Under the pieces are notes generated by a model. That model was not told where the DNA came from and made no database searches. It saw only the letters and a program-made list of their open reading frames with translations. Positions 20,810 to 62,467 of a stretch of 64,000 bases of DNA are shown here, in pieces; within the stretch, counting starts at the first letter, position 1; each line of letters opens with the position of its first letter. Location of the stretch: the NCBI GenBank assembly GCA_964426545.1, contig CAYRQP010000007.1, forward strand, positions 36,534 to 100,533, written 5' to 3'. This DNA comes from an uncultured bacterium (GTDB lineage: Bacteria > Fermentibacterota > Fermentibacteria > Fermentibacterales > JCC-6). Made by a program: the position numbers and the translations under genes.

Positions 20810-20915
20810 CATAAGCACCTACCTAAATATCCCCAATAGTACGGTTGACAAGCATATATAATGTGTCTATGTAATAAGTAAGTGTGCTATTGTGATGTAC
20901 CATGTCGGAGGAAAA

Positions 20916-21509
20916 ATGTTTCATACAGTGTTGCTCATAGCCTTTTCTCTTTCACTGCCGCAGACAGGAGTTCTTTCGGGAGATGAAATTGTCTTCAATG
21001 AATTCATGCCTGACCCTGTTGCCAGCACAACCGAATCTGACGGAGAGTGGATTGAACTGTATAACCGTTCGGACAGCTATGTGAACCTTGGCGGATGGGA
21101 AATAGAGAACGAGGACGGTGAACGGATAGTCCTTCAAACATACTTACTGCCCCCCGGCGGGTATTATGTCATAGGAGCCTGCAGCGATATACAAAAAAAC
21201 GGCGGCTATGAACCCGATTGTATCTGGTCGAATTTCAGCATAGATAACAGCGGAGAGTTTTCCCTTTACGACAACTCAAAGACTTTAGTTGATGAAGTAA
21301 CCTACACTGAAGGTGAATGGTCTATTACTTCAGGATGTTCCTGTGAACGGATCAATCCGGGCTGGGTATCTTCACTTCCTTCAACATGGGACTTCTGTAC
21401 ATCCGTTTACGGCAATGGAGACCTTGGGTCCCCCGGAGAGATAAACAGCGTATACGAGAACTCATTTGCTCAGAACAGCTGGGCATTCATCAAGGCTTTT
21501 GTGAACTAG
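20916..21509 (+). CDS. secreted lamin-tail-domain (LTD) protein
   Basis: Signal peptide MFHTVLLIAFSLSL. LTD signature EFMPDP...EWIELYN...GGWEIENEDGE...FSLYD..LVDEV. Start chosen at the ATG with a GGAGG RBS. Confidence 0.55.
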   Translation: MFHTVLLIAFSLSLPQTGVLSGDEIVFNEFMPDPVASTTESDGEWIELYNRSDSYVNLGGWEIENEDGERIVLQTYLLPPGGYYVIGACSDIQKNGGYEPDCIWSNFSIDNSGEFSLYDNSKTLVDEVTYTEGEWSITSGCSCERINPGWVSSLPSTWDFCTSVYGNGDLGSPGEINSVYENSFAQNSWAFIKAFVN

Positions 21510-21524: not shown

Positions 21525-22706
21525 ATGAAAACATCTCTCATTCTGCTGCTTTCTCTGTTTGCATTATTGTCTGCAACCGAGCCGCTGGTAGTATTCTTCA
21601 TAGATCCCACATCGACCCCGCAGGGATTTTCCGGTGATGCAATTCTGGTGTGTACTCCAGCCGGACGAAATTATCTCATTGACGGGGGCATGCTGTGGAA
21701 CGACTTCAGCGATCAAGGCTGGGACTGCGGCACCGAGACAATCCTACCTCTACTTGACAGTCTGGATATCACATATCTCGACGGTATTGTTGGAACCCAT
21801 CCGCATGCCGACCATATAGGTGGATTGATAGCGGTACTCAATAATATGCCTGTAACGACAGCTTATGATTCCGAATGGCCCTATGGCGGCACATGGACCT
21901 ATGAAGAATTTCTCGATGCAATCTACAGAAATGGATCCAACTCTGTTACGCCGCGAAGAGGAGATATCCTCAACTGGGGGTCGGAATTAACTGTTGAAGT
22001 TATCCATCCGGTTGATCCGCTTGCACAGCCGAACGAAAATAACGCTTCAATTACGATTAGATTGACCTATGGAGAAATTTCTTTTCTTTTCACCGGTGAC
22101 CTTGAAACAAGCGGCGGCGAAGATATCATTCTCGCTGCTCTTGCAAGCGGAGATATCGAGAATATTTCTGCAGATGTTCTTAAAGTCGGGCACCACGGTT
22201 CTTATACTTCAACATGCAACAGTTGGCTTGCTGCAGTAGATCCATCCATCGCTGCGATTTGTGTGGGACGGGGAAATGAGTATGGACACCCCCATGGAGA
22301 AGTCATAAACAGACTCAATATGTGGGATATAGACATTTACAGGACAGACGAAGACGGAACATTCTATATTTCCACAGACGGAGAAGATCTCTATTATGAT
22401 TCGATGCCGCCCGAGACCGGCGGCACAGAGCCGGATCCCCCAGCCGGATTTTCAGTATATCCCAGTCCCGCCACTGACGATGTTACATTTGCATGGGATG
22501 CAACCGATGGGGTAACAGCAGCTATTGTCATCTATAATTTGAATGGTGAGAAGGTCAAAGAAATAACGAATATATCATCAGGCATCTGGACATGGACAGA
22601 TATGCGTCTGGACAACAACAGTATTCTGTCTTCCGGACTCTATGCAGCAGTTTTCACGACGAGCGGGGGTGAAACATGGGTAGAATACTTTGCAGTCTCA
22701 CGCTGA
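21525..22706 (+). CDS. secreted MBL-fold metallohydrolase (ComEC/Rec2-type beta-lactamase domain) with T9SS-like C-terminal sorting domain
   Basis: Signal peptide, HPHADHIGG (HxHxDH) and GHHGS motifs. C-terminal YPSP...IYNLNGEKV...GLYAAV...FAVSR resembles a Por_Secre_tail/FlgD-Ig-like domain. Confidence 0.6.
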   Translation: MKTSLILLLSLFALLSATEPLVVFFIDPTSTPQGFSGDAILVCTPAGRNYLIDGGMLWNDFSDQGWDCGTETILPLLDSLDITYLDGIVGTHPHADHIGGLIAVLNNMPVTTAYDSEWPYGGTWTYEEFLDAIYRNGSNSVTPRRGDILNWGSELTVEVIHPVDPLAQPNENNASITIRLTYGEISFLFTGDLETSGGEDIILAALASGDIENISADVLKVGHHGSYTSTCNSWLAAVDPSIAAICVGRGNEYGHPHGEVINRLNMWDIDIYRTDEDGTFYISTDGEDLYYDSMPPETGGTEPDPPAGFSVYPSPATDDVTFAWDATDGVTAAIVIYNLNGEKVKEITNISSGIWTWTDMRLDNNSILSSGLYAAVFTTSGGETWVEYFAVSR

Positions 22707-23560
22707 TACCGATGTTTCTATCGCTTCCCGCCTATGCCGGCACCGGAGCAGCTGGTCTTCTGATGCTCTGTTCTCCGGGCTTTCCCGAACAGATGATGCT
22801 CGGTCCGGCAGGCATGTCTCTTGCAGCGGGACCAACTGCATTGACTTCGAACCCGGCTCTTCTGATATCCGGTTTTTCAGCAGCGGGTGGCAGATGGAAT
22901 CTCTCTACAACATCAGTTTCCTTTTCAGGTGCCTTCTCTTCAGGTAACCTGATATGTGCCGGCGGGCTGAGATATCTGGGTAAAACCGGATTGATTAGAA
23001 GGAATGCAAGCGGAGAAGCAATAGGAGAATATTCATTTTCTTCGGGTTTCGCAGGCGGTGGAGTTGCATTTCCCATTACTGATTATCTATCCGGCGGAAT
23101 TTCAGGCGGAGCAGTATGGGAATCTATTGCCGAAGAAGGCGGGACCGGCTTTGCAGCCAATGCAGGCCTGGCAATGAAATTATTTGATAATATTGATTTT
23201 GGACTGACTGTTAACGGATTTGGGCAGGCTCCTTCATGGGAAGGCATTCACAATGACATGCCGGTTGAAATCTCAGGCGGAATAGGCATTCCATTCGCAC
23301 AGGTGTGTTACGGTTTTGCAGGGGTAAGACAGGGATTCAGCACAGCAGATCTGTACGGCACCGGATTGATGTTTACGGTGTCAGGTGTATCCTGTTCGGG
23401 CGGGTATCAATACTCTACTCAGGACGGTCAATCGGGCATATTCGGTGGATTGAACTATTCGACGAAATCAGTCGGAGAAGAATATTCCATATCCATAGGT
23501 TTTGCTCAGAGTGATGAGTTCTCCTGGCCGGTTTTGGCCGGGCTGACGGTCAGCTTCTAA
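22676..23560 (+). CDS. outer-membrane beta-barrel protein, PorP/SprF-like (putative T9SS cargo partner)
   Basis: Gly/aromatic-rich, alternating amphipathic strands, C-terminal Phe (LTVSF). SLPAYAGTG resembles the NPAYAG motif of the PorP/SprF family. Lies directly downstream of a T9SS-CTD cargo gene. Confidence 0.4.
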   Translation: MGRILCSLTLIPMFLSLPAYAGTGAAGLLMLCSPGFPEQMMLGPAGMSLAAGPTALTSNPALLISGFSAAGGRWNLSTTSVSFSGAFSSGNLICAGGLRYLGKTGLIRRNASGEAIGEYSFSSGFAGGGVAFPITDYLSGGISGGAVWESIAEEGGTGFAANAGLAMKLFDNIDFGLTVNGFGQAPSWEGIHNDMPVEISGGIGIPFAQVCYGFAGVRQGFSTADLYGTGLMFTVSGVSCSGGYQYSTQDGQSGIFGGLNYSTKSVGEEYSISIGFAQSDEFSWPVLAGLTVSF

Positions 23561-23664
23561 CAAGGGGGACGGAGGAGCATGCCAACTCCTCAACAAGGGG
23601 GACGGAGGAGCATGCCAACTCCTCAACAAGGGGGACGGAGGAGCATGCCAACTCCTCCGTCCCC
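23561..23664. repeat. three tandem 33-nt direct repeats (CAAGGGGGACGGAGGAGCATGCCAACTCCTCAA), the last extended into a full GGGGACGGAGGAG/CTCCTCCGTCCCC hairpin
   Basis: Read directly from the sequence between convergent genes ending at 23560 (+) and 23666 (-). Confidence 0.8.
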
Positions 23665-23665
23665 A

Positions 23666-24142
23666 TTAGAACTTTGTTGCTGAGGAATAATCATCCATAT
23701 CATACTTGATGAGTATATCGGGCATGGGTAGTTTATCCAACTTCACCCCGGAATTTTCGAAAAATTCTTCGGCAAGAGAGTGCCCTGTATAGTCTGAAAA
23801 AATAACCACGCGGACTATTCCTGCCGCAAGCAGCGCTTTTGAACAGGTGGTACACGGCATATTCGTGATGTAGGCGGTAGAACCGTCAATAGAGACACCG
23901 TGCCGCGCTGCCTGGGCTATGGCATTCATTTCCGCATGATTCGTGCGTACGCAGTGTTCCTCGACTATCAGGCATCCGATGTCTTCACAGTGTTCGAGTC
24001 CGGGAAGTGAGCCGTTATAACCGGTTGAAAGTACATATTTGTCCTTGACCAGAACACAGCCGCAGTGCATTCTGGGGCAGGTTGCCCGTTCAGATGCAAG
24101 CATGGCAAGTTTTAGAAAGTACTTATCCCACGGAGGTCTCAA
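23666..24142 (-). CDS. dCMP deaminase (ComEB-like cytidine/deoxycytidylate deaminase)
   Basis: Zinc-binding HAEMNAI and PCTTC motifs; 158 aa. Confidence 0.75.
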   Translation of the reverse strand: MRPPWDKYFLKLAMLASERATCPRMHCGCVLVKDKYVLSTGYNGSLPGLEHCEDIGCLIVEEHCVRTNHAEMNAIAQAARHGVSIDGSTAYITNMPCTTCSKALLAAGIVRVVIFSDYTGHSLAEEFFENSGVKLDKLPMPDILIKYDMDDYSSATKF

Positions 24143-24185
24143 TTTATCCTCATTCCGTAATTTGTTTCATCGAATATGATTAAAT

Positions 24186-25703
24186 CTAATTGCCAAAGGA
24201 ATAGTCGACCTGAAGTCCTGCGCCATATCTTGAATTCCCGACGGTTTCCTCCCAGCCGCTGCCGATGACTTTCAGGTTTTCGAAATTCTTCCAGTATCCC
24301 CGTGCTGTCAGTTTGAAGCCGTTTGGAATTGACAGTGATACGGCTCCCTGAAGCATAAAACCGGAATCCCATAGAGAAACGGATCCAAATTCCCCCGGAA
24401 AAACAATCTCGGCAGCATAGATCCGTGAATTATATCCCCGGGTAGAAAAAGCAATAGCCCCTGCCCACAAACGCCATTGGGAGTTCAGGTCATACCGCAG
24501 CCTGAATTCTCCGCCAGTACCGGTTTCGGAAGAATCTGATTCGGAATCCTGCCAGCCGGTAGCCTGGACTTTTGCAGAAAGATGTATTTTCCTTCCGGGA
24601 TCCCATGTTGTTTTAAGCCATAAGCGATAGGAATTATCATCTTCACTTCCGGAATTTCTTCCCCCTAATGTGAAAAGCAGCCTTCCTTCAAGTCTCTGCT
24701 GTATTTCCCCTGAAAATTTCAGCAGATACTCATCATCGATGAATTGAGTCCTTACTCCTGCAGAGAAAGTAGTTCTTTCGAAGGGGCGGAAACGAAAACC
24801 GTATCCCGCCCCAAAGTCACAGGAAGTGCCTATTGGGAAAGAAGCCCGTGTCTCAGGAAAACCCTCAGGAAGACGGTAGATTGTGATGTTATGTTTGAAC
24901 AGGTCGAGATTTTGTGTAAGAGCAGCCCATCCGGCAAAAGACAGTACAGTATCTACGAAAAACTGCCCAATCCCTGCTTCTCCGGATATGAGGAAGTCCT
25001 CGAAATTCAACCTCCAGTCCACTCCGCCGCGATATACTAAAGATGTGGAATCATCTTCGAAGGCTCTTCTAATTACAGCTGCGGTGATTCCGGCTTCAGG
25101 GATGGAAAGACGGAAAACTCCCAGTAATTCAGTAATACTTACCCGATCCGCGATTTCGGAAGGGGTTCGGTGATACCCTTCGCCGGAGCCGTCTATTTTG
25201 GAATAAGCGCTCAGTACAGAGAGATTATATGTACCCACAGATAACTGTGTCCCTATTCCTGTCATGGGTTCGCCACGGATTCCCCAAGAAGATGTAGCCA
25301 GCCGGATGTAATCTCTTATACCCGGCGGTTTGCATAAGTTCAGATTATCGACACCTGTCCAGGAACCGGGATATGAAAAGATAACCCCTGACCCGAGTTT
25401 TGACTTAAGCCATCCTGCAGAGACTGATGTAAAAGGAGACGACGAAGAGTTCCATCTGCATCCGCCTGCAATGATATCCACCCAGTCTTCACCCCTGTTC
25501 TTGTCCATGAGAAGGGACAAGTCGAGACCACCGGCAGATATCCTTATACGGTTATATAAAGAATATTCATCCCCTGTATATTCTCCGCCAAGTGTACCGC
25601 GGCAATCCGGAAACCGCCGCCAAATTCTCGTTCGGATATCGCCCTCGATGCTGTAGGCGGCGGATACGGTAAGCATGAGAAGCAGGATTGAGAAATATTT
25701 CAC
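24186..25703 (-). CDS. outer-membrane beta-barrel protein of unknown function
   Basis: Signal peptide MKYFSILLLMLTVSAAYS. About 500 aa of alternating aromatic/Gly-rich strand-like segments. GTG start overlaps the upstream stop (GTGA). Confidence 0.45.
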   Translation of the reverse strand: MKYFSILLLMLTVSAAYSIEGDIRTRIWRRFPDCRGTLGGEYTGDEYSLYNRIRISAGGLDLSLLMDKNRGEDWVDIIAGGCRWNSSSSPFTSVSAGWLKSKLGSGVIFSYPGSWTGVDNLNLCKPPGIRDYIRLATSSWGIRGEPMTGIGTQLSVGTYNLSVLSAYSKIDGSGEGYHRTPSEIADRVSITELLGVFRLSIPEAGITAAVIRRAFEDDSTSLVYRGGVDWRLNFEDFLISGEAGIGQFFVDTVLSFAGWAALTQNLDLFKHNITIYRLPEGFPETRASFPIGTSCDFGAGYGFRFRPFERTTFSAGVRTQFIDDEYLLKFSGEIQQRLEGRLLFTLGGRNSGSEDDNSYRLWLKTTWDPGRKIHLSAKVQATGWQDSESDSSETGTGGEFRLRYDLNSQWRLWAGAIAFSTRGYNSRIYAAEIVFPGEFGSVSLWDSGFMLQGAVSLSIPNGFKLTARGYWKNFENLKVIGSGWEETVGNSRYGAGLQVDYSFGN

Positions 25704-26779
25704 TCAGTTACCAGATATTCCTGCAGGATTTCAAGCATGGCAGGACCTATGCCTGGACAATCATCCAGTGTGGCAACAGACCCGACAGGACCGTTCTCCT
25801 GCACCCATGCATGAATAGTACCGGCTTTCGACGGCCCGATTCCGGGAATGAACTCGAGTTCTTCTGCAGTTGCAGTGTTTATGTTAAGGGGGAAGGAAAC
25901 TGTCAGTTCCTCTTCCTGTTCGTCTTCCAGAATAAGCGGAGCAGGATCAGATGCACACCCGCCCCATGCAAGCGAAGCTACATGAGTGCCGGGAAGGGAC
26001 GCATGGTTACCGTATCCCCATGACAGGTCGAAGTCGGAGAGAGAGATAACAACAGCAAATGAAAGTCTGACCGGATTTGTGACGGCTCCTGTCTGAAGGG
26101 TAAGTTCTTCCACGGGAGACGCGGAAACATGGAAGGAATATTCAGACTCAAGCCCTTCATTCCTGCGGAAGCCGGCACTGAGAGTAACTCCATCAACGGG
26201 AACGATACCTGCTGCAAGGTCGAATCCGCGAGGCTGGGCAGGGTCGCCGGACACTCCGATTTCAGTACGCAGAACACCCCTTACCGCACCTGCAAAGTGA
26301 ATACCCTGAATTGGGATACAACTGAAGCCTACATCCAGTCCGGCTCCGCTTCCACTGCCGTATCCGCTGATAGCAAGCCGCCTGTAAGAACAGCCGATTC
26401 CGACAGCAATTCCATCTGTAATCTTCCGTGCAGCAGAAGCGAGAATAGTGCCCTCTGTGTACGAATGGTCTCCTGATAGAGAGAAAGCCCCGCCCACGAA
26501 CCAACTGTCGAACATCATTCCGCCGGAAAGCGAAGTTTTATCGAGTTCGCTTAGTCCATATGGTCTTGCACCTGATATTGCTATCCCCGAACTTTCGAGA
26601 AAAGAAGTAGCGGCAGGATTTTCCAGCATGACATGCGGGGAGCGTGGGAACAGTGAAGATGCCGGCCCGCAAAGAAGCCACGGAGATTCGGGCATTGGCT
26701 CGAAAGCCCCTTCTGAAATGGAAACACAGAAGAAGCAGGTAATCAGGTAGAACATCAAACGATTGTCTAAAATTGTCAT
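25700..26779 (-). CDS. ComEA-like helix-hairpin-helix DNA-binding protein with a large N-terminal beta-rich (barrel-like) domain
   Basis: C-terminal NINTATAEELEFIPGIGPSKAGTIHAWVQENGP...LDDCPGIGPAMLEILQEYL is a ComEA-type tandem HhH. The N-terminal ~270 aa is Gly/aromatic-rich with amphipathic strands and a signal peptide. Confidence 0.55.
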   Translation of the reverse strand: MTILDNRLMFYLITCFFCVSISEGAFEPMPESPWLLCGPASSLFPRSPHVMLENPAATSFLESSGIAISGARPYGLSELDKTSLSGGMMFDSWFVGGAFSLSGDHSYTEGTILASAARKITDGIAVGIGCSYRRLAISGYGSGSGAGLDVGFSCIPIQGIHFAGAVRGVLRTEIGVSGDPAQPRGFDLAAGIVPVDGVTLSAGFRRNEGLESEYSFHVSASPVEELTLQTGAVTNPVRLSFAVVISLSDFDLSWGYGNHASLPGTHVASLAWGGCASDPAPLILEDEQEEELTVSFPLNINTATAEELEFIPGIGPSKAGTIHAWVQENGPVGSVATLDDCPGIGPAMLEILQEYLVTE

Positions 26780-26937
26780 ACTATAGTGTACTTCATATTG
26801 AAGAGAATTTCAAGCCTCATCTATTTTGAATAAAACACCAGAACCTGACAGCAATATTGACGCTTGACAATAGGTAAGCAAGTCATCAGTCTATGCTGTT
26901 GAATAATTAATTAAATCGGTTAATCCGATAGACTTTT

Positions 26938-28419
26938 TTGGAGCTGATAATGGACCATGCATGTCCCGGATATTTCCGGCGGCAGGATGGCAGTGTACTA
27001 ACAGACATTGCATTGGAAGTTCTGCGGAAACGCTTTCCGCATTCTAATAATCCTGTACGAGACTGGCTTCCCGGCAGACCTGACTGGGAAGAGGGTCTGC
27101 CCGATATCGATATCCTTAAGCAGGAACTTACAGACCTCCGCAGCCGCGGGGGGAAAATAGTCATATATGGTCATGATGATATGGACGGCGTGACAGGGCT
27201 TTTCGTCGGAGTTACAATTCTCCGGGCTGAAGGTTATACCGTCATTCCAATAATCCCCCGCAGTTCTACAGACGATTACGGTATCCGTCCTGCAAGAATG
27301 GAAGGTATTCTGAATAGCGGAGACCTTCTTCTTACCGTGGACTACGGTTGCTCCGCCGTCCACGGAGTGAAGTGGGCTATTGAAAAGGGCGCGCGGGTGG
27401 TAATAACAGACCATCACTTACTTAATCCTCCGCTTCCGCCTGCACACGGATTAATCAACCCGCAATTCTTCGGATTGCCCGGGATAGTATTAGCCGGATG
27501 CGGCGTTCTATATGCATCACTTGTTTCTATATTTCCGCACTGGGAAAACAACGCTAACCTCCTTGCCGCCGTTGCTTTGGGAACAGTTGCCGACAGAGTC
27601 CCGCTCTCGGGATGGAATCGTTATCTGTTGTCCGAATTCAGTAGAGTCAACATTGAAAAGTTAAGCACCGGTTTAAGGATGTTCATCGATGAATGGCCCG
27701 CCCGTACATCTGCATGGACGGGACTTATGGTTCGTCAAAGGATAATATCTGTTATCGGCAAGGGTGAAAAATCAGAGATCGACAGATTGCTCGAGTTTAT
27801 GATGACCAATGATAAAGAAAGTGTTAGAAAGCAGTGGATCAATATGAGGGATACAAGCAGGAAAAGGTCCCGGGCACTCTCGAAGTACTTCACTCTGGCA
27901 ATGCAGAGCAGGGATGAGCAGGCAGCAGCTTACGGCATGACGCTTATCTATATGGATTCACTTCCGAGCGGAATGGGAGGGGCAATTGCCGGGCGCATAA
28001 CCAAGATTGACAAGAGAAGCGTAATAGTCGTTTCTCCGCGCGAAGATGGGACTCTGGGCGGAGAAGCAAGATCTGCCGGGGATTGGAATGTAGCAGGATT
28101 TCTTACGGGTATGAAGAATGTATTTGCCAGTGCCGGCGGTCATAAAATGGCGGCGGGATTCAGCTGCAGAGATAAATCATGGGAAGAACTGAGAGAAATC
28201 ATGCTGTCCAGAATGACTGAATATCCGGCAGAACCCTTACCGCAACCCCACATTGACCTTGAAGTAACCGAACTCCCCGATCCCAATGAATTCAAGTGCC
28301 TTGCACCCTTTGGTCCCGGTTTTCTTCCGCCTGCTGTAAAAAAAGACAACCTTCGTTATCTTCTGCAGGTTGGCGAAAATAACATTAACTGGAGAATTTC
28401 AGAAGAAGGCGGCGATTAA
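26938..28419 (+). CDS. DHH/DHHA1 phosphoesterase, RecJ-like core (no C-terminal OB domain)
   Basis: Motif I IYGHDDMDGVTG, motif III VVITDHH and DHHA1 GGHKMAAGF. Confidence 0.6.
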   Translation: MELIMDHACPGYFRRQDGSVLTDIALEVLRKRFPHSNNPVRDWLPGRPDWEEGLPDIDILKQELTDLRSRGGKIVIYGHDDMDGVTGLFVGVTILRAEGYTVIPIIPRSSTDDYGIRPARMEGILNSGDLLLTVDYGCSAVHGVKWAIEKGARVVITDHHLLNPPLPPAHGLINPQFFGLPGIVLAGCGVLYASLVSIFPHWENNANLLAAVALGTVADRVPLSGWNRYLLSEFSRVNIEKLSTGLRMFIDEWPARTSAWTGLMVRQRIISVIGKGEKSEIDRLLEFMMTNDKESVRKQWINMRDTSRKRSRALSKYFTLAMQSRDEQAAAYGMTLIYMDSLPSGMGGAIAGRITKIDKRSVIVVSPREDGTLGGEARSAGDWNVAGFLTGMKNVFASAGGHKMAAGFSCRDKSWEELREIMLSRMTEYPAEPLPQPHIDLEVTELPDPNEFKCLAPFGPGFLPPAVKKDNLRYLLQVGENNINWRISEEGGD

Positions 28420-29519: not shown

Positions 29520-31100
29520 CTATTCGATAAGGTCACTGTCGTCGCGGGGTTCGATTTTCCAGTTGTCGTAGCTATACATGCACACACCTATGATTTCGCT
29601 GAAAGTATCACCGACAGTAGGCTCATATGTATAGTCTCCCAGATCATCGATTCTAATATCACCCGTACCGTCATCGACAGCCCATTCACCGTATCCAAGG
29701 TCATCTTCAGAAACTTCTACATCAGACACCGATACGAGAACGGATTCCCACTGTTCTTCAGCGACACTGCCCGTAGAGAGAGCTTCAGCAGCCGGAAGGG
29801 TGTGACCGGTCGAGTGAACATCGACAGCAGACGGATAAGAAAGTTCTGTGAAACTGTAGTATTCCTGGATTTCTCCTGTAATCGTGATACTGTCTCCTCT
29901 TGCAAGCCCTGCAACATCGGAACCGAAGAGAGTCAAGCCGGCCCACGCACCGCCGCCTTCGTCCATTATAACGGCATAGGCATACTGGCTGGAATAATAT
30001 TCATCGCCGCCGACAACTACGATTCCTGTCACACTGACAATCTGCCCTTCATAAGGCGAGGCTGACTGCTGTCCCTGTACTTCGTAGCAGGTGAGTGCAT
30101 CTCCGCCACTGCCGCCGGAAGAAACATCCAGGTCCGCATTGTCTCTCGGCTCGAGTTTCCATTCATTGTATGCATACCAGACTACGCCTGTTGCAGAAAA
30201 TACAGTATCTCCGAGCGCTGCCTGCCATGTAAATGTACCAAGGTCATCACCCATGCAGTCGCCGGTTCCGTCATCCATCAGCCACTGTCCGTATTCCTGT
30301 ACTTCGGTTACAATGGCATCGGTTACTGTAACAAGAACGGATTCGTATGCTTCAGGGTCTGCTGATTGTGAAATGTCAGCGGTTGTAACCGCAGTCGAAG
30401 GAGGTATAGGGTTTCCGGAAGAGACCACTTCTACAGAAGTAATGTATTTAACTTCTGTCATCTCCCAGAACTCTTCGACTGTTCCGGAGACGATGACACT
30501 GTCACCGCGTGCAAGATATGCAATGCTGTCACCGAAAAGAGTAAGTCCCGCCCATGCACCGCCTGAAGGGTCGGCGATTACAGCAACAGGATCACCATAG
30601 AAGCAATCGCCGGCAACTGTAACTATACCGGTAACTTCGACTTCCTGACCCGCATAAGGGGAAGTAGATGCCTGTCCCTGTATTTCATAGCAGGTGAGGT
30701 ATTCTCCACCGCCACTGCCGCCGGAATCGGGAGTTACAGATTCTTCATTGCTCCATGCATGAAGATCCTCTGTATCCGTTGTACGGAGAGCGTAGTAATA
30801 CTTGGTGCCCCATTCAAGATCCGGGTCGGTGAATGTAGTCTCATTAATATCATAAACAGGTCCCTTTACGAGGTCAGACGATGCAGATACTCCCTGAGAC
30901 GTATCTCTGTAAAGGTTATATTCCGCAAAGTCGTCATCAGGGCAAACTGTCCAGGATCCGGATGCTGTCGTATTGGTCACACTTACGCTTAGTGTAGAAG
31001 CAGTAGGGTTGCTGCTGGGTCCTGTCTCATCATCGCCGCAGGACATCATCAGCCCCATAGCAACGATTAAGACAACAAGAAACCATTTGTATTTAGTCAT
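29520..31100 (-). CDS. surface lipoprotein with FN3-like domain and two tandem duplicated OB-fold-like domains
   Basis: Lipobox MMSCGDD and an FN3-like N-terminal region. Two ~170-aa repeats (SGGSGGGEYLTCYEIQGQASTSPYAGQEVEVTGIVTV... / SGGSGGDALTCYEVQGQQSASPYEGQIVSVTGIVVV...) have an OB-fold (tRNA_anti-like) VxVxGxV...D.sG pattern. Confidence 0.5.
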   Translation of the reverse strand: MTKYKWFLVVLIVAMGLMMSCGDDETGPSSNPTASTLSVSVTNTTASGSWTVCPDDDFAEYNLYRDTSQGVSASSDLVKGPVYDINETTFTDPDLEWGTKYYYALRTTDTEDLHAWSNEESVTPDSGGSGGGEYLTCYEIQGQASTSPYAGQEVEVTGIVTVAGDCFYGDPVAVIADPSGGAWAGLTLFGDSIAYLARGDSVIVSGTVEEFWEMTEVKYITSVEVVSSGNPIPPSTAVTTADISQSADPEAYESVLVTVTDAIVTEVQEYGQWLMDDGTGDCMGDDLGTFTWQAALGDTVFSATGVVWYAYNEWKLEPRDNADLDVSSGGSGGDALTCYEVQGQQSASPYEGQIVSVTGIVVVGGDEYYSSQYAYAVIMDEGGGAWAGLTLFGSDVAGLARGDSITITGEIQEYYSFTELSYPSAVDVHSTGHTLPAAEALSTGSVAEEQWESVLVSVSDVEVSEDDLGYGEWAVDDGTGDIRIDDLGDYTYEPTVGDTFSEIIGVCMYSYDNWKIEPRDDSDLIE

Positions 31101-56071: not shown

Positions 56072-57589
56072 ATGTATAGAATCATGTTACTTATCATTGC
56101 AGCTTTGACTTTTGCAGGCACAGTTTATGACTACACTCCGGTAACCACCAACACTGACCCTGGTTATGTTCCCAGTACATATCAGGAGTGGCTGGACGGA
56201 CAGCCTGTTCCTGTCCCGCTTGAAGTAACTTCCATAGCGAAGACCGCTACCCGCGGAACTGAGTTCGTGATAGTATGTGAAGTGGGAATAACAGACAGCA
56301 TCGGCACCGAACTGCTGGAGCAGTGGATGGCCGATATTGCGAATCAGGGGCTTTCAGTCGAAGCGGTCGAAGTCACATACAGTACCCATGTCGAGATGAA
56401 AGACTATCTGACAGAATTATGGGAAAACGGGCTTAAAGGTGCGGTTCTTGTAGGAAATCTCCCTGCTGCGTGGGGTGCACTCGGAGATCAGTTCCTCGAT
56501 TCGGACGAGACGTTCCCAAGCGATTATTACTATATGGACCTCGATGGAATCTGGGAGGACAACTGGGTGGGCTATCCTTCTGCCGGAATTCCAGGAACGG
56601 ATGGAATATTCGACACATGGTCGGGAAATCTGGAGCCTGAAATCTATGTCGGAAGAATAAAAGTAGATAACATGACGGCATATTTTCCCGATCCGATGGA
56701 CCTTCTTCGTGATTATCTCGAACGGAATCATCAGTGGCGGGTTGAAGGTGATCCTGAACCCCTGACAGCCCTTTGTTATGTAGACAACGACTGGTCATAC
56801 TGGGGACCCGGGTATCAGGGTGCAATGGAGTACCTTTATCAGAACACAGTTCTTGTGTCACAGGTAGATTCAACCAACGGAACGGATTATCTCGAAAATC
56901 GTCTTCCTGACAATTATGTCTGGATAAGTCCTTTTGTTCATTCCGGCCCCACTGTTCATCAATGGAATCCGGGACCTTATACATACTGGGACGATATTGT
57001 GCCGGCACAGCCGCAGGCGCATTTCTATAATCTCTTTGCCTGTTCCAATTCCCGTTTCACGACCCAGCGGAATATGGGGGCCGTTTATACATTTTGCACA
57101 GATACGGGGCTTGCTTCGATTGGAAGCACAAAGAGCGGTTCGATGCTTCAGTTTACAATGTTCTACCTTCCGCTTGGTATAGGACGCTCTCTTGGTGAGT
57201 CCTATCAGGAATGGTGGGACTACATAGCCATCGATGGTCTTAACTTTGACGAGAAGTCCTGGCACCTTGGAATGGTACTGCTTGGTGATCCGACGCTTAT
57301 ACCGGCTATGCATATGCTTGGAATAGAAGAAGGTGATGTTAGCCCGCACAACCCTGAAATCCTTCTCACAATTGAAGGCAATCCCTGCAGGTCAACGGCT
57401 GTCATCGCTACAAATATTCAATCAGGTACTGTCGAAGTGCATGACACTTCGGGAAGGCTTGTTTACACCGACGAACTCTCAGACGGCAGAGCCACTATTT
57501 ACGCCGAAGATCTGAATACGGGAATGTACTTTGTTCGCGTCGTATCAGGCGTGTCAGAAGCAACAGAATCATTACTTGTCCTGCGGTAG
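56072..57589 (+). CDS. putative clan-CD (gingipain/C25-like) cysteine peptidase with T9SS type-A C-terminal sorting domain
   Basis: Candidate catalytic dyad in FVHSGP...LFACSNS (His then Ala-Cys). C-terminal GRLVYT...GMYFVRVVSG...SLLVLR matches the Por_Secre_tail pattern. The peptidase assignment is tentative. Confidence 0.4.
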   Translation: MYRIMLLIIAALTFAGTVYDYTPVTTNTDPGYVPSTYQEWLDGQPVPVPLEVTSIAKTATRGTEFVIVCEVGITDSIGTELLEQWMADIANQGLSVEAVEVTYSTHVEMKDYLTELWENGLKGAVLVGNLPAAWGALGDQFLDSDETFPSDYYYMDLDGIWEDNWVGYPSAGIPGTDGIFDTWSGNLEPEIYVGRIKVDNMTAYFPDPMDLLRDYLERNHQWRVEGDPEPLTALCYVDNDWSYWGPGYQGAMEYLYQNTVLVSQVDSTNGTDYLENRLPDNYVWISPFVHSGPTVHQWNPGPYTYWDDIVPAQPQAHFYNLFACSNSRFTTQRNMGAVYTFCTDTGLASIGSTKSGSMLQFTMFYLPLGIGRSLGESYQEWWDYIAIDGLNFDEKSWHLGMVLLGDPTLIPAMHMLGIEEGDVSPHNPEILLTIEGNPCRSTAVIATNIQSGTVEVHDTSGRLVYTDELSDGRATIYAEDLNTGMYFVRVVSGVSEATESLLVLR

Positions 57590-57643: not shown

Positions 57644-58309
57644 TTAGAACTCAGATTTAATCTCTCCCCATGTACTTGGTGTAAGCCCGGCATCACCATA
57701 GAGATTGAAAAAACATTCGAAGGCGACTGAATTCCAGGTCGCACCATTGTCATTGCTCCAGCATGAAGCCTCTGCCCATAACTGGTCTGCAACGACCCAA
57801 TTTACATGCTCGGAAGCGGAAACGGCCTGAACACCGAGCCAGAATGTTTCTCCTGCAACAACAGAAAAGCCATCTCCCAGGTCTACTGTAACGGCAAAGA
57901 TGTCATTCCCGGCGAGGTCGTCTCCCGTATCCACCTCGGCAATCTGGGATGAAGGAATTGTTTCATTCCATACAATAGTTCCCGGGCACGGGGTATCCGC
58001 TGTATCATTTGTATAAACAAACAAATTAAGGTCAAGCGGGTGGGTTGTCCCGAAATAAACAAGCCAGAGTTCAAGCTGATTGACGGTACCGCCTGACGAA
58101 AGAACGAAATCATCAGCCCCCAGATAGGTTCCCCCGCTGGCAATTTGAAAAGCATCCTTGGCATTTGCAAAGTCATATGGCTGTGAGTAGAGAGTACCGT
58201 CTGCGAGTGGAGGGGGTGTCACGGGAGATTGCGGTGTAGTATCAATCATAATTGTGGCAAATGCTGCAACGGTAAAGAATATCAGTACAAAAGTTGACCA
58301 GCGTTTCAT
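57644..58309 (-). CDS. small secreted protein, paralog A (unknown function)
   Basis: Signal peptide MKRWSTFVLIFFTVAAFA. About 60% identical by eye to the adjacent paralog. Conserved LYSQPYDF, VDTGDD, GETxWxGVQ, CWSxDNGATW and a C-terminal GLTPSTWGxIKSEF. Confidence 0.45.
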   Translation of the reverse strand: MKRWSTFVLIFFTVAAFATIMIDTTPQSPVTPPPLADGTLYSQPYDFANAKDAFQIASGGTYLGADDFVLSSGGTVNQLELWLVYFGTTHPLDLNLFVYTNDTADTPCPGTIVWNETIPSSQIAEVDTGDDLAGNDIFAVTVDLGDGFSVVAGETFWLGVQAVSASEHVNWVVADQLWAEASCWSNDNGATWNSVAFECFFNLYGDAGLTPSTWGEIKSEF

Positions 58310-58434: not shown

Positions 58435-59133
58435 TTAGAACTCAGATTTGATATGTCCCCATGTGCTGGGTGTAAGTCCTGTTTTCTGATTTAGGTTGAA
58501 GAAGCACTCGTAGGTATCAGAGCCAAGCCCATCCCAGGTAGCACCATTATCAGCACTCCAACAGGCATTCATTGCCCAGAGTGGGTCGGCAACGAGCCAA
58601 TATACAGCATCGCTTCCAACTGACTGTACTCCGAACCAGTGAGTTTCACCTGCAGGAATGGCAAAACCGTTGCCGAGATCTACAGTGACATGATAAATGT
58701 CATATCCCCACTGGTCATCACCTGTATCTACATCTGTAATCTGTGCTGCAGGAATTGTAGCACTCCATGCGGTACCTCCGGGACGAGGCCCCGTGTCACT
58801 TTCATCGTTGGTATAGACATACATATTGAGGTCGACAGGGTGTGAAACGGCATAGATTAGCCATAGTTCGACCTGATCTACATGCCCGTCAGAAGTTAGG
58901 GCGAAATCATCTGCGCCGATATACTGATCTCCGCTTGCTACGCTGATACCGTTTACAAGGTTGGAAAAGTCGTAGGGCTGTGAATAGAGTGAACCATCTG
59001 CAGGTGGTGGCGGTTCGCTGCTGTGTGACGGTATTCTTCCGAGTTCGAAGCCGGATGAACGATGAATGCCGACAATCGTGGCAAAAGCCGCGAAAGTAAA
59101 GAAGACGATAACAAAAATGGACCAAAGTTTCAT
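58435..59133 (-). CDS. small secreted protein, paralog B (unknown function)
   Basis: Signal peptide MKLWSIFVIVFFTFAAFA. Tandem paralog of 57644-58309. Confidence 0.45.
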   Translation of the reverse strand: MKLWSIFVIVFFTFAAFATIVGIHRSSGFELGRIPSHSSEPPPPADGSLYSQPYDFSNLVNGISVASGDQYIGADDFALTSDGHVDQVELWLIYAVSHPVDLNMYVYTNDESDTGPRPGGTAWSATIPAAQITDVDTGDDQWGYDIYHVTVDLGNGFAIPAGETHWFGVQSVGSDAVYWLVADPLWAMNACWSADNGATWDGLGSDTYECFFNLNQKTGLTPSTWGHIKSEF

Positions 59134-59322: not shown

Positions 59323-60873
59323 ATGACAAACAATCGCTTCTTCGGCGGACACGGCGGGAAAATTGCGCTGTTTCTCATAACTGTCTATTCCGTTCTTATC
59401 TGCTTCTCAGTTATCATGTCGCAAACTTACATACACGATGACAATATGTATGTAGCTGCAGGTATCCTTCTGGCAGAGAAACAGATCTATTCTGATTTCA
59501 CATATCTTCAGACACCTTATATGCCCTATCTGTACAATCTGGTCTTTAGACTCAATGACTATTCACGGCCCCTTCTTGTAGGGAAACTGTTCAAGTTCTT
59601 TCTGTCGGTAATCGAATTAGCATTGATCTACCTTCTGTTCAGACTTCTTTCGGGAAACAAGTGGCTGAGTGCGTCCTTCCTGCTGATTCTTGTGAACAAC
59701 AGGATATTCCGAAGCATTATACCATACATTCGAAATTACGACCTTGCATTGATATTGGCTCTTGGTGCTTTCCTGTTCTATTTTTACAGGCGGAGGAAGT
59801 CACAGGGCAGACTCTTGGTAACATATTTAATAACGGGGGTGCTCTCAGGAGCAGCCATTGGCGTAAAACTGACTTACGGTCTTATACCGCTCTGCTTTCT
59901 TATACCGCTGTTTATCGAATACCGGTTTTCTTCGAAGAGTTGGCGGCTTTTTGCATCATTCATTTCAGGCATGATCATGACTCTTATTCCTGCTATTGTT
60001 CTGACTCTCAGACCCGGGCCGGATGTAGGTTATTTTAATAACATCGGATACCATTCCCTAAATGTATCCTGGGTGATGACTGAAGTTACTGAATCGAGCG
60101 TGTATTTCCACGAAAAACTGCTTTACTTCCTTAACATATTCACCTGTGTCCAGTCTAATATTTTTGTTCTTTTGATTTTCATTTATGCGATATTCGTATC
60201 AGTCAAAGAGAAAATCTCCGTGAGATACAGCAATTCACCATATCCGGTCATACTCCTGTTTCTGTTTGCCGGTCTGTTGATGTTCTTCCTGCCGACTCCC
60301 TCGGGAGACGGGTATCTATATGCAGCCATACCTGCAACTCTCATGTTCATCTGTGTTCTTCATGGAAAATTTAGCGAAACAGGGAAGAAGAGGGTGTTGA
60401 TGTTATCCTGGACAGTTGCCGCTGTTCTTGTGCTTGGCAATGGAGCCCTCGACCATAAAATGATGAACACAGCTTTTATTCCTTCTGCATGGGGGCCGAA
60501 CAAGATGCATGAGTCGATACAGACTCTTGCTGATTATATTCCCGAAGAGCAGAGAGAGCAGCCCGTGGCAACGCTGCATTCCGCAGTTCCCCTCGAAATA
60601 GGAATGAACATATACACGGAATTTTCAAGCGGTGAATTCACCTGCAGGATTGCACACATTCTGTCGAAAACTGAACTCGACAGATATGGAATAACCGCTC
60701 CACGCTACATCTTATCTCTGCTCGGAGCAGATCCCCCATCCGCCATTATTGTCAATGCTGATATATCCAGATGGGAAGAGACTTTCATGGAGTATGCAGA
60801 AACGCATGGTTATGATGACTTCTACACACTCGACGGATATATATTCTACATAAGGACAGGGGAGCAGGAATGA
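59323..60873 (+). CDS. GT-C fold membrane glycosyltransferase-like protein (ArnT/PMT-like), paralog 1
   Basis: Polytopic, with a DD motif (IHDDNMY) in the first extracytoplasmic loop directly after TM1. C-terminal soluble domain of ~150 aa. Paralogous to the downstream gene. Confidence 0.45.
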   Translation: MTNNRFFGGHGGKIALFLITVYSVLICFSVIMSQTYIHDDNMYVAAGILLAEKQIYSDFTYLQTPYMPYLYNLVFRLNDYSRPLLVGKLFKFFLSVIELALIYLLFRLLSGNKWLSASFLLILVNNRIFRSIIPYIRNYDLALILALGAFLFYFYRRRKSQGRLLVTYLITGVLSGAAIGVKLTYGLIPLCFLIPLFIEYRFSSKSWRLFASFISGMIMTLIPAIVLTLRPGPDVGYFNNIGYHSLNVSWVMTEVTESSVYFHEKLLYFLNIFTCVQSNIFVLLIFIYAIFVSVKEKISVRYSNSPYPVILLFLFAGLLMFFLPTPSGDGYLYAAIPATLMFICVLHGKFSETGKKRVLMLSWTVAAVLVLGNGALDHKMMNTAFIPSAWGPNKMHESIQTLADYIPEEQREQPVATLHSAVPLEIGMNIYTEFSSGEFTCRIAHILSKTELDRYGITAPRYILSLLGADPPSAIIVNADISRWEETFMEYAETHGYDDFYTLDGYIFYIRTGEQE

Positions 60874-60898: not shown

Positions 60899-62467
60899 AT
60901 GAAAATGACCGGCTTTGTAGAGACCTTCAGGGGAAATAGACTCCGCAGATTCGGAGTAACCCTTGCTGTTGTCTACTGTGTACTGATGTGCTTCACTACA
61001 GTAAGCAAAGTCATTCCTGTCCGCGATGACAATATGTACATTTCGTCGGCAGTTCTTCTCGAAGAGTACACCCTCTATGATGAATTTGCATATCTGCAAA
61101 CACCTTACATGCCGTATATCTACAATGCCATGTTCAAACCGTTCGGTTATGGCAGACCGCTTCTCATCGGGAAGATATTCAAGTTTCTGCTTGCAATGGG
61201 TATTCTCGGACTAACCTATGTCCTGATAAAGAAACTGTCAGGAAGCAGGGGTATTTCACTGGCGTTCATACTTATTATGGTTAACAACCAGATATTCCAG
61301 TTCAACATACTCTTTGTGCGGAATTATGATCTTCCGCTGCTGCTTACACTTGGTGCGTTCGTTTACCTTCTCTCGGGTCGTGCTTCACCTGTGTGGAGTA
61401 TAAGGAAGGCAATCGTCACGGGTGTTCTGTGCGGATTTTGCATTGGGATAAAACTCACATATGCACCGCTTCCCCTGGTTCTTCTCGTATCGATGGTACA
61501 CGAAAACGGAATATCGAAAGCACTTCTGCGGTATTTTGTCGCCTTCAGTATCAGCATGATCGTTGTTCTCATTCCTGCAATAGTAATTCTCATCCGGGTA
61601 GGATGGGACATTACATACTACAACAACCTGGGCTTCCACCTGCTGAACGCCGAGTGGTTCCGCGAACTTGCAGGAGACGAAGTAATAGCAACGAATGCTG
61701 CAATTACAGTATGGGAGAAAATAGAGTATTTCATATTTGTGCTGTTTCGAGAGTTTTCGAATGCGCTGCTAATGTTCCCGCTTCTTTTTGGAGCAGTGCT
61801 TCACAGGAAGCGATTAGGCGTGCTTCTACATAGCAGAGGAACTCACTTCTCGATGTTCCTGATGTTGTTCTTCATAGGGTTGCTGATGTTTTTTGCGGCT
61901 ACACCGTCCTGGCACTGGTATCTCTATCTGGTTACATTTTCTGCTGTCATCCTCGCATCTGTCATTTGCGGTGATATGTCCATTGAATTGAAACGGGTCA
62001 TGAAAGTAATAATCTGGTCTATTGCCATCATTCTGATATGCTCACACATAGAAGCAGATATCAAAATTCTTGGGAATGCATTCAAACCTTCCAAATGGGC
62101 GACAACTCAGGTTTATGATGACATGACAGCACTGAAGGAATTAGTACCGGATTCCGTCAGCATGCTTCCTATGGCAACTGTTCATACAGCCCTGGCACTC
62201 GAAGTCGGAATGGACATCTATCCTGAACTTGCCTGCGGTGACTTTACCTGCAGGACATCAGGTATGCTTACAGCGGAACAAAGGAGGAAATACAGTATTA
62301 TCGACCCGACCGAATTCGATTCCCTGTTCGCAAAAAGACCGCCGTGTGCTATCCTTATCAACGAGCAACCCTGCGGGTGGGAGGTTCCATTGGAACGCTA
62401 TGCAATCGAAAACGGATTCGAGAAGTACAGGTGGATGGATGGGTATAAGTTCTACGTAGCGAATTAA
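60899..62467 (+). CDS. GT-C fold membrane glycosyltransferase-like protein (ArnT/PMT-like), paralog 2
   Basis: Same architecture; VRDDNMY after TM1. Shares YLQTPYMPY, NYDL and a C-terminal FTCR..G...DGYxFY block with paralog 1. Confidence 0.45.
   Translation: MKMTGFVETFRGNRLRRFGVTLAVVYCVLMCFTTVSKVIPVRDDNMYISSAVLLEEYTLYDEFAYLQTPYMPYIYNAMFKPFGYGRPLLIGKIFKFLLAMGILGLTYVLIKKLSGSRGISLAFILIMVNNQIFQFNILFVRNYDLPLLLTLGAFVYLLSGRASPVWSIRKAIVTGVLCGFCIGIKLTYAPLPLVLLVSMVHENGISKALLRYFVAFSISMIVVLIPAIVILIRVGWDITYYNNLGFHLLNAEWFRELAGDEVIATNAAITVWEKIEYFIFVLFREFSNALLMFPLLFGAVLHRKRLGVLLHSRGTHFSMFLMLFFIGLLMFFAATPSWHWYLYLVTFSAVILASVICGDMSIELKRVMKVIIWSIAIILICSHIEADIKILGNAFKPSKWATTQVYDDMTALKELVPDSVSMLPMATVHTALALEVGMDIYPELACGDFTCRTSGMLTAEQRRKYSIIDPTEFDSLFAKRPPCAILINEQPCGWEVPLERYAIENGFEKYRWMDGYKFYVAN

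Follow-up and report, generated by a model that had tools for sequence, protein, structure and literature searches.

The 64-kb window analysed here (64,000 nucleotides of contig CAYRQP010000007.1, from an uncultured bacterium of the Fermentibacterota) contains a minus-strand operon in which a protein with a ComEA-type helix-hairpin-helix (HhH) domain, P1, is followed by a large predicted outer-membrane beta-barrel, P2, and a dCMP deaminase, P3. Sequence comparison indicates that the P1-P2 pair is the local form of a two-barrel module found across the Fibrobacterota-Chlorobiota-Bacteroidota (FCB) superphylum, and is not peculiar to one genome. The pair may well be an outer-membrane DNA receptor or import module, combining a DNA conduit with a ComEA domain, a reading that falls slightly short of what we would call probable. 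The tethering of a ComEA domain to an outer-membrane barrel appears to be new here: a literature search outside subscription journals found no paper on ComEA domains borne by outer-membrane barrels. The same literature held no account of this arrangement as a DNA-uptake apparatus, in agreement with the initial annotation of the locus, which had not recognised it as a described one.

Gene layout of the locus

The three genes of the operon are as follows.

25700-26779, minus strand: P1, 359 aa, with a signal peptide, a predicted FadL/PorV-like 14-strand barrel and, beyond an acidic linker, a ComEA-type (HhH)2 domain
24186-25703, minus strand: P2, 505 aa, GTG start, with a signal peptide and a predicted 24-strand outer-membrane barrel
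23666-24142, minus strand: P3, 158 aa, TTG start, a dCMP deaminase with HAE and PCxxC zinc motifs

The stop codon of P1 and the start codon of P2 overlap in the GTGA at 25700-25703, and P2 and P3 are separated by 43 nt (24143-24185); the three co-directional open reading frames (ORFs) of the initial annotation, with this overlap and this gap, were found exactly as it had described them. Public gene calls start P1 8 codons further in (351 aa). The window is chromosomal, with 42-49% G+C, and housekeeping genes surround the locus (leuS, uvrA, dnaK-grpE-dnaJ, metK, metG and a glycosyltransferase cluster). The closest named homologues of P1 and of P2 all belong to Candidatus Fermentibacteria or Aegiribacteria, a part of the FCB superphylum once known as candidate phylum Hyd24-12.

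P1, a predicted small barrel with a ComEA-type domain

An AlphaFold2 model of P1, built from a 41-sequence alignment, has a pLDDT of 87.2. In it DSSP assigns aa 38-60 to short helices and aa 65-272 to 14 beta-strands; after a low-confidence acidic linker comes a helical domain at aa 298-356. Two parts of the protein are distinguished.

25964-26707, minus strand: P1 aa 25-272, a hatch-like N-terminal segment with short helices and a conserved NPA motif (N54-P55-A56), then 14 strands (DSSP)
25703-25891, minus strand: P1 aa 297-359, predicted ComEA-type (HhH)2 DNA-binding domain

The mature N-terminus that follows the signal peptide, AFEP, is invariant, and the invariant or near-invariant columns of the family alignment comprise A25, F26, E27, P28, N54 and P55. 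P1 has the arrangement typical of FadL, PorV and PorQ, a 14-strand outer-membrane barrel with an N-terminal segment in its lumen. Comparison of the model with other barrels gave, in a value column that carries no label, 26.4 for E. coli FadL, 26.2 for PorV of type IX secretion systems (T9SS), 24.5 for F. johnsoniae BamG and 24.4 for TodX. The P1 barrel therefore appears, in the model, to be FadL/PorV-like by fold alone: the N-terminal domain has no match at E <= 0.1 to NF033709 PorV_fam, NF033711 PorQ, PorP or Pfam Toluene_X, and neither P1 nor P2 matches any named Por/Spr protein of the T9SS at equivalog level in NCBIfam. The suggestion in the initial annotation that this domain might be a true outer-membrane barrel is borne out by the 14-strand model.

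The C-terminal domain belongs, as judged from its sequence, to the ComEA DNA-binding domain family, which is how it had first been annotated. [quoted passage not shown] Both PGIG hairpins are conserved in the P1 family, and residue 318, which follows the first hairpin and is K in P1, is K or R throughout. With TIGR00426 the domain scored 42 bits, under the cut-off of 53.1. P1 as a whole would not be classed as a ComEA by the full-length model TIGR01259, against which it reaches 47.7 bits (cut-off 152.35) and matches profile positions 54-118 only; the region of ~270 aa before the HhH domain is a predicted beta-barrel, unlike the anchor/SLBB architecture of that model. In a 14-strand outer-membrane barrel both termini lie on the periplasmic side. 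Because the HhH domain follows an even-stranded barrel, we infer that it is periplasmic.

P2, a predicted 24-strand barrel

The structure prediction for P2 has a pLDDT of 91.3 and a pTM of 0.84. Its DSSP string contains 24 long strands joined by periplasmic turns of 2-5 residues and by longer external loops, of which L3 has 43 residues, L4 19 and L11 25. The signal peptide directly precedes strand 1, and there is no HhH domain on the P2 polypeptide. The strands alternate in a clean amphipathic pattern, with 4 K/R and no D/E at the 147 lipid-facing positions and 29 K/R against 16 D/E at the 141 lumen-facing positions, and the C-terminus is aromatic and beta-signal-like. The signal peptide, the amphipathic strands and this C-terminal end place P2 in the outer membrane, and the initial view of the 505-aa product as a true outer-membrane barrel is upheld by the 24 confidently predicted strands and by the scarcity of charge on their lipid-facing side.

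Across the P2 family the lumen has a median net charge of about +4.5. From strand number and geometry we estimate a C-alpha diameter of ~44 Å for the barrel if it is unobstructed, which would leave room for B-DNA unless loops fold in; the usher pore is a precedent for the width of a 24-strand barrel. P2 has no sequence match in Pfam, NCBIfam or the PDB, and among Pfam families no plug, TonB_dep_Rec or CarboxypepD_reg match was found. It thus appears to belong to an unnamed FCB family with neither a curated model nor a solved relative.

Conservation of the pair within Fermentibacterota

A scan of one genome per species gave 52 loci with the full-length P1 fusion. Those with an organism name are all Fermentibacterota (Aegiribacteria, Fermentibacteraceae, Sabulitectum, Hyd24-12), and outside this group the matches to P1 in the same scan were to the HhH domain only. 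In 50 of the 50 loci where the DNA extends far enough, P1 is followed by P2 in the same direction, and the deaminase gene comes directly after P2 in 47 of these 50, so that the gene order, on which the initial annotation had made its interpretation depend, is conserved in relatives. The deaminase gene adjoins leuS instead in three loci (L037, L050, L052). Because of this difference in adjacency, P1-P2 is the invariant core of the operon and the deaminase a frequent but dispensable passenger.

The surroundings of the operon are also recurrent. In nearly all Fermentibacterota loci a gene for a RecJ-like DHH/DHHA1 protein is divergent from P1, and a gene for a secreted lamin-tail-domain (LTD) protein lies convergently downstream, near the operon. 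The LTD gene forms a trio with genes for a metallo-beta-lactamase (MBL)-fold protein and a PorV/PorQ-like protein in ~24 of the 52 loci, and the trio moves as a block. In the rearranged genomes of L037 and L050 the DNA-related neighbours stay clustered with P1-P2, including the gene for a lipoprotein with oligonucleotide/oligosaccharide-binding (OB) folds, whereas the deaminase gene does not. Synteny spans leuS to a CitMHS transporter across the phylum.

A conserved secreted protein of ~300 aa is encoded between the RecJ-like gene and P1 in L001 (8986-9900), L003 (8947-9924) and 25 other Fermentibacterota loci, representing the Fermentibacteraceae/Sabulitectum half of the phylum; its gene adjoins the LTD gene in L037 and L050 and is absent from the window. 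It has no family match, and was rejected as a PorD or a P1-like barrel since it matched neither.

Related pairs across the FCB superphylum

An hmmsearch with the P2 profile against 1.84 billion cluster representatives matched 3339 representatives at E <= 1e-3, of which 1407 reach E <= 1e-10. Among the matches listed, those that are not Fermentibacterota-like are 550-740 aa long (typically ~670 aa), and the P2 profile covers approximately residues 130-660. The extra N-terminal region is HHH_3/ComEA-like in 7 of 10 scanned FCB proteins of the P2 type (E down to 1e-15), and such HhH-barrel fusions occur in Chlorobi/Ignavibacteria, many Bacteroidota and Rhodothermota. The P2 family and the HhH-barrel family align by hhalign over 471 columns with a probability of 100% (E 2.6e-45), and have the motifs KDxGE, G(L/Y)HRTxSE and GSGx(D/E)E in common. 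P2 has the full-length barrel homology and the upstream small barrel of the FCB HhH-barrel family, and lacks an HhH domain on the same polypeptide.

Rufibacter, Rubrivirga, Mangrovibacterium, a contig resembling Ignavibacteria and one more metagenome-assembled genome have a gene for a small barrel of 274-315 aa directly upstream of the HhH-barrel gene and on its strand; these are five of the seven individually inspected loci with upstream DNA, and the two genes often overlap by 4 nt. Comparison of these upstream barrels with the N-terminal domain of P1, at three of the five loci, gave hhalign probabilities of 97.9% (E 6e-13), 92% and 62%, and a tblastn match at E 3.5e-16. The upstream barrels also match PorV/PorQ-family models at E 1e-6 to 4e-16, with 21-69 bits for PorV_fam, under its cut-off of 90. 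When an alignment of the Bacteroidota subset was used as query in metagenomes, 80 Bacteroidota-branch loci were obtained, and a small barrel is encoded directly upstream in 67 of them.

The partnership of the P1-P2 type, with an HhH domain between the barrels, is thus kept from Fermentibacterota to Bacteroidota, Ignavibacteria and Rhodothermota at 20-25% sequence identity. The order small barrel, HhH, large barrel in the DNA is conserved across the superphylum and likely ancient, and it is the gene boundary that has shifted in Fermentibacterota, where it falls after the HhH domain and not before it. Because the order in the DNA is kept while the HhH domain switches barrel, the three modules are likely to act, or to be selected, together, in the manner of a Rosetta-stone fusion. 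That most phyla carry the domain on the large barrel, and Fermentibacterota carry it on the small one, therefore offers a simple evolutionary argument for joint function.

Some of the related pairs lie near genes of DNA uptake and processing. In Sphingobacterium haloxyli (L088:7001-13043) the HhH-barrel gene reaches into the start of comEC, and recQ comes next in the same overlapping, co-directional run; the ComEC encoded there is canonical, with DUF4131 and Competence domains. In three other lineages DprA, RecJ or dCMP deaminase is encoded within 6 kb of the pair. The S. haloxyli locus has no small barrel upstream, and a tRNA-like sequence stands there instead. We also note that in ~30 of the 80 Bacteroidota-type loci (as in L151:5354-6808) the gene directly upstream of the pair, usually next to lgt, specifies a 484-aa single-POTRA, BamA-like (Omp85) paralogue; this protein may be dedicated to assembly of the pair or be its third barrel partner.

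The deaminase P3

P3 matches Pfam dCMP_cyt_deam_1 at 5.8e-25 (87.6 bits, cut-off 25), carries the zinc motifs HAE and PCTTC, and has as its nearest solved structure the S. mutans dCMP deaminase 2hvv (1.1e-33). The initial annotation had called it a ComEB-type dCMP deaminase. The enzyme class stands, and TIGR02571 ComEB is the best NCBIfam model, with a score of 155.7 bits that lies below the equivalog cut-off of 219.45. Among the window's ORFs of 150 aa or longer, none matched the domains of a ComEC channel (Competence, DUF4131), and the window contains no pilus genes.

Neighbouring features in the window

Other features around the operon are listed in order of position.

20892-21509, plus strand: secreted LTD protein (Pfam LTD 3.1e-18)
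21525-22706, plus strand: secreted MBL-fold protein resembling the C-terminal nuclease domain of ComEC and ending in a T9SS sorting domain; HxHxDH present
22676-23560, plus strand: 294-aa weakly PorV/PorQ-like protein (NF033709 3.7e-6, NF033711 6.1e-6, both far below cut-off)
23559-23657, no strand: three perfect tandem copies of a 33-bp GC-rich hairpin unit (TRF score 198, 100% matches)
26785-26813, minus strand: candidate sigma-70-like promoter upstream of P1 (9/12 consensus matches)
26938-28419, plus strand: RecJ-like DHH/DHHA1 protein, 493 aa, divergent from P1, no signal peptide (DHH 1.8e-15, DHHA1 3.7e-8)
29520-31100, minus strand: predicted lipoprotein with a fibronectin type III (FN3) module and two OB-fold modules (NF033681 ExeM_NucH_DNase 9.2e-19, partial; tRNA_anti-like 7.8e-7)

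The MBL-fold protein matches TIGR00361 ComEC_Rec2 at 1e-36 over profile positions 451-663 only, Lactamase_B at 1.3e-15 and Por_Secre_tail at 1.6e-5, the last just under cut-off. It is encoded by a stand-alone gene ~1 kb from the operon, with its own signal peptide, and had been overlooked in the initial annotation. The ORF of the 294-aa PorV/PorQ-like protein overlaps the end of the MBL gene, and its product may be an anchor barrel for T9SS cargo. The N-terminal domain of P1 and this protein were considered as internal duplicates and rejected as such (BLASTP E 0.04, hhalign probability 0.7%).

The RecJ-like protein scores 183 bits against TIGR00644 recJ, below the cut-off of 397. It consists of DHH and DHHA1 only, without the RecJ OB domain that the Mangrovibacterium RecJ has, and is possibly a specialised paralogue, distinct from the housekeeping RecJ. 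The lipoprotein has a lipobox that reads LMMSC, with an acidic stretch after the cysteine (CGDDETG). Its OB-fold modules resemble the non-catalytic, DNA-binding part of the extracellular nucleases ExeM and NucH; it has no nuclease domain and no Pfam match to DUF5689, and is a candidate surface DNA-binding protein by these sequence features.

The candidate promoter of P1 sits in the 158-bp divergent intergenic region that P1 has in common with the RecJ-like gene; sigma-70-like sites in the region upstream of P1 are not above the shuffled expectation in number, so the site is a candidate only. The 33-bp array lies between the convergent ends of P3 and the PorV/PorQ-like gene, has no other copy in the window and has a predicted RNA fold of -62.7 kcal/mol (z -7.5); the array might serve as a bidirectional terminator or represent a small repeat element. 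Further away, the window encodes tandem secreted paralogues of ~225 aa with 57% identity (57644-58309 and 58435-59133) and tandem paralogues of ~520 aa with hydrophobic N-termini and 37% identity (59323-60873 and 60899-62467), all without a Pfam match, and a 505-aa ORF at 56072-57589 that is unrelated to P2, has no match and has a T9SS-like C-terminal end.

Proposed function and alternative explanations

We propose that P1 and P2, two translationally coupled barrels, would work as a single complex. The small barrel would dock on the wall of the large barrel, as PorV does on SprA and BamG on BamA, and this docking would hold the ComEA domain below the periplasmic mouth of P2, where it could capture DNA arriving through P2 and block its backsliding. 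DNA would be bound and cut outside the cell by the T9SS-exported MBL nuclease together with the LTD protein and the OB-fold lipoprotein. Once imported, it could be turned into dNMPs and dUMP by the RecJ-like single-stranded DNA exonuclease and the co-transcribed dCMP deaminase, giving the deaminase a possible role in salvage. The start-stop overlap of P1 and P2 and their invariable adjacency in the phylum support a single complex, in which the barrels would be in contact. Passage of DNA is favoured by the charge distribution of P2, where a net-basic lumen contrasts with acidic loops and an acidic mature protein as a whole, by the DNA-related neighbours that stay with P1-P2 in the two rearranged genomes, and by the overlap of the Sphingobacterium HhH-barrel gene with comEC, the sole direct link to canonical machinery.

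Several observations weigh against import of DNA by the pair. None of ComEC, DprA, RecJ, RecQ or dCMP deaminase is encoded within 8 kb of the pair in the 80 Bacteroidota-type loci, and a neighbouring deaminase gene, which the initial annotation had suggested looking for beside HhH-barrel genes, is accordingly missing from all of them over that distance; this absence of DNA genes weakens the DNA reading and does not remove it. The recurrent neighbours in these loci are instead Lgt, the short BamA-like Omp85 paralogue, NadE, RNase III and FabF. In the Bacteroidota branch the hairpin glycines of the HhH domain are degenerate, many members falling under the Pfam HHH_3 threshold, and HHH_3-like domains without DNA binding exist, as in PsbU and GspK. 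The T9SS protein PorD is encoded divergently adjacent to the pair in L087 (4960-5925) and L170 (4177-5079), and a PorD-like protein in L086 (5079-6002), in FCB members other than Bacteroidota. The 43-residue L3 of P2, or its conserved GYHRTxSE loop, may be a plug. Part of the Fermentibacterota synteny, which reaches leuS, may reflect low rearrangement and not function. Finally, type IV pilin genes have been reported in Hyd24-12 genomes (PMC5030696), so that a pilus route for DNA is possible.

The last of these points bears on a first alternative, in which the barrels merely anchor a periplasmic ComEA receptor, P2 is structural or unrelated, and DNA enters elsewhere, through a type IV pilus and secretin or through a TonB-dependent, Ddb-like system. 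The ComEA-type domain is solid, and Gram-positive ComEA is likewise membrane-tethered, so an anchored receptor would be in keeping with both; the open P2 pore of the import model is a supposition, and the reported pilin genes would supply the other entry route. Anchoring would leave unexplained, however, the fusion of HhH domain and large barrel seen in thousands of FCB proteins and the retention of a 24-strand barrel with a polar, net-basic lumen as the invariant partner. We consider this alternative unlikely, while regarding it as a serious one.

A second alternative is that the pair is an envelope or T9SS complex, composed of a PorV/PorQ-like carrier or anchor and a partner barrel, in which the HhH domain binds protein or another polyanion; the DNA-related neighbours in Fermentibacterota would then be T9SS cargo and coincidental synteny. 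The sub-threshold PorV/PorQ matches of the small barrels are consistent with this, as are the adjacent PorD genes, which in L087 and L170 stand beside a gene for a HEAT-repeat cyclophilin peptidyl-prolyl isomerase, the prevalence of the BamA-like paralogue and Lgt next to the Bacteroidota pairs, the degenerate Bacteroidota HhH, and the presence beside our operon of a T9SS-tailed protein and another PorV/PorQ-like gene. Against it, the Fermentibacterota HhH is a canonical ComEA domain in sequence identity to the Geobacillus protein, with hairpins under purifying selection, P1 itself fails to match PorV, PorQ or PorP even at the permissive threshold used, and the Sphingobacterium locus provides one direct overlap with comEC. 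Moreover, no PorD homologue is encoded in the window or in the 52 Fermentibacterota loci, which lack the isomerase gene as well, and both PorD and the isomerase are absent from the 80 Bacteroidota loci. This explanation, too, seems to us to have only a minor chance of being correct.

It is quite improbable that there is no shared function at all, with P1 and P2 ordinary porin-like proteins, P3 a housekeeping enzyme and the synteny a product of a slowly rearranging chromosome region. The phylum-wide synteny from leuS to the CitMHS transporter, and the normal character of P3 as a dCMP deaminase, would fit such a view; the start-stop overlap of P1 and P2 and the retention of an HhH-containing partnership across four lineages at such low sequence identity would not.

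The model of the initial annotation, a comEA-comEB-comEC-like operon in which a barrel sits where comEC would be and takes over the place and role of the ComEC channel, can hardly be upheld: a ComEA-type domain and a ComEB-like deaminase do share an operon, and comEC is missing from the window, but the comEC search covered one 64-kb window, P2 has the features of an outer-membrane barrel, which cannot stand in for the polytopic inner-membrane ComEC, its homologue in S. haloxyli overlaps the start of a canonical comEC so that the two coexist, and the deaminase gene is apart from the pair in three Fermentibacterota genomes. Nor does the operon mirror that of Bacillus, as had been stated, the order here being comEA-like, barrel, deaminase.

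Returning to DNA import by the pair, the FCB group, to which Bacteroides, Porphyromonas, Riemerella and Flavobacterium belong, poses the open problem of how DNA gets across the outer membrane when no type IV pilus and secretin take part. The FCB candidate proposed previously is of the TonB type only, and the barrel pair is a second and very widespread candidate. It is possible, if on balance doubtful, that the FCB bacteria have in it a DNA-import machine of their own, independent of both secretin and TonB, with a monomeric 24-strand conduit, a PorV-like partner and an integral ComEA ratchet. Its function would then be seen most clearly in Fermentibacterota, where the ComEA domain is canonical and a nuclease, an OB-fold protein, a RecJ-like protein and a deaminase are encoded nearby. 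If the link to DNA fails, the FCB envelope would still have in the pair a large two-barrel complex of the outer membrane that awaits characterisation.

Comparison with known systems

In common with comEA-comEB-comEC of Bacillus subtilis, the locus has a ComEA-type domain and a ComEB-like deaminase encoded in one operon. The analogy fails because the defining member, ComEC, is absent from the operon; it is also missing from the window, the gene order differs, the deaminase is below the ComEB equivalog cut-off, and the two outer-membrane barrels have no counterpart in Bacillus. With regard to ComEA itself (V. cholerae, B. subtilis, Geobacillus 8dss/8dfk, Thermus 2duy), the last 63 residues of P1 are a canonical (HhH)2 domain that probably occupies the same compartment as diderm ComEA. 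In contrast to ComEA, P1 has neither an SLBB/oligomerisation domain nor a transmembrane helix, and its (HhH)2 domain hangs from a predicted 14-strand barrel.

The closest relatives of the large barrel are the FCB HhH-barrel proteins (Rufibacter hautae, Sphingobacterium haloxyli, Rubrivirga, Ignavibacteriaceae), to the barrel part of which P2 is homologous over its whole length. In Fermentibacterota the HhH domain rides on the small barrel, P2 has its own signal peptide, and the HhH domain is much closer to true ComEA than that of the Bacteroidota members. Partnership between FadL-type barrels and larger barrels has been described in FCB bacteria, with PorV on the SprA translocon (PDB 6h3i; PMC10994853) and BamG, a FadL-type barrel, bound to BamA (PDB 9n2d; PMC12611786). 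P1 differs from these in lying outside the PorV and PorQ models by sequence, in its shorter barrel of ~250 aa and in carrying a predicted DNA-binding domain, and its putative partner would have 24 strands, in contrast to 36 in SprA and 16 in BamA.

It has been reported that transformation of R. anatipestifer depends on a barrel in the outer membrane, a protein at the surface and an HhH protein in the periplasm (RA0C_RS04915, RA0C_RS04920 and RA0C_RS02645; PMC8459023), the last with an HhH at aa 236-301 and with a mention of "three HhH domains" in the same report (PMC8459023), and that ddbABCDEF of B. thetaiotaomicron imports DNA and yields deaminated bases (PMC12478041). These two reports lend plausibility to a barrel route for DNA that needs no pilus in this group. 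The present locus resembles these systems in the proposed pilus-independent passage of DNA through a barrel and in combining nucleases that are secreted, a lipoprotein that binds DNA at the surface and an HhH protein in the periplasm, all as predicted here. Their barrels are of the TonB-dependent type, with CarboxypepD_reg, a plug and a DUF5689 partner, in contrast to P2, which has none of these.

The proposed logic, an outer-membrane conduit above a ComEA ratchet, is the same as that of the PilQ secretin with soluble ComEA in Vibrio, Neisseria and Thermus. Proteobacterial soluble ComEA acts below the PilQ secretin, where it captures DNA and prevents backsliding. Unlike the PilQ systems, the locus has no pilus genes, and the proposed conduit would be a monomeric 24-strand barrel with its partner rather than a multimeric secretin.

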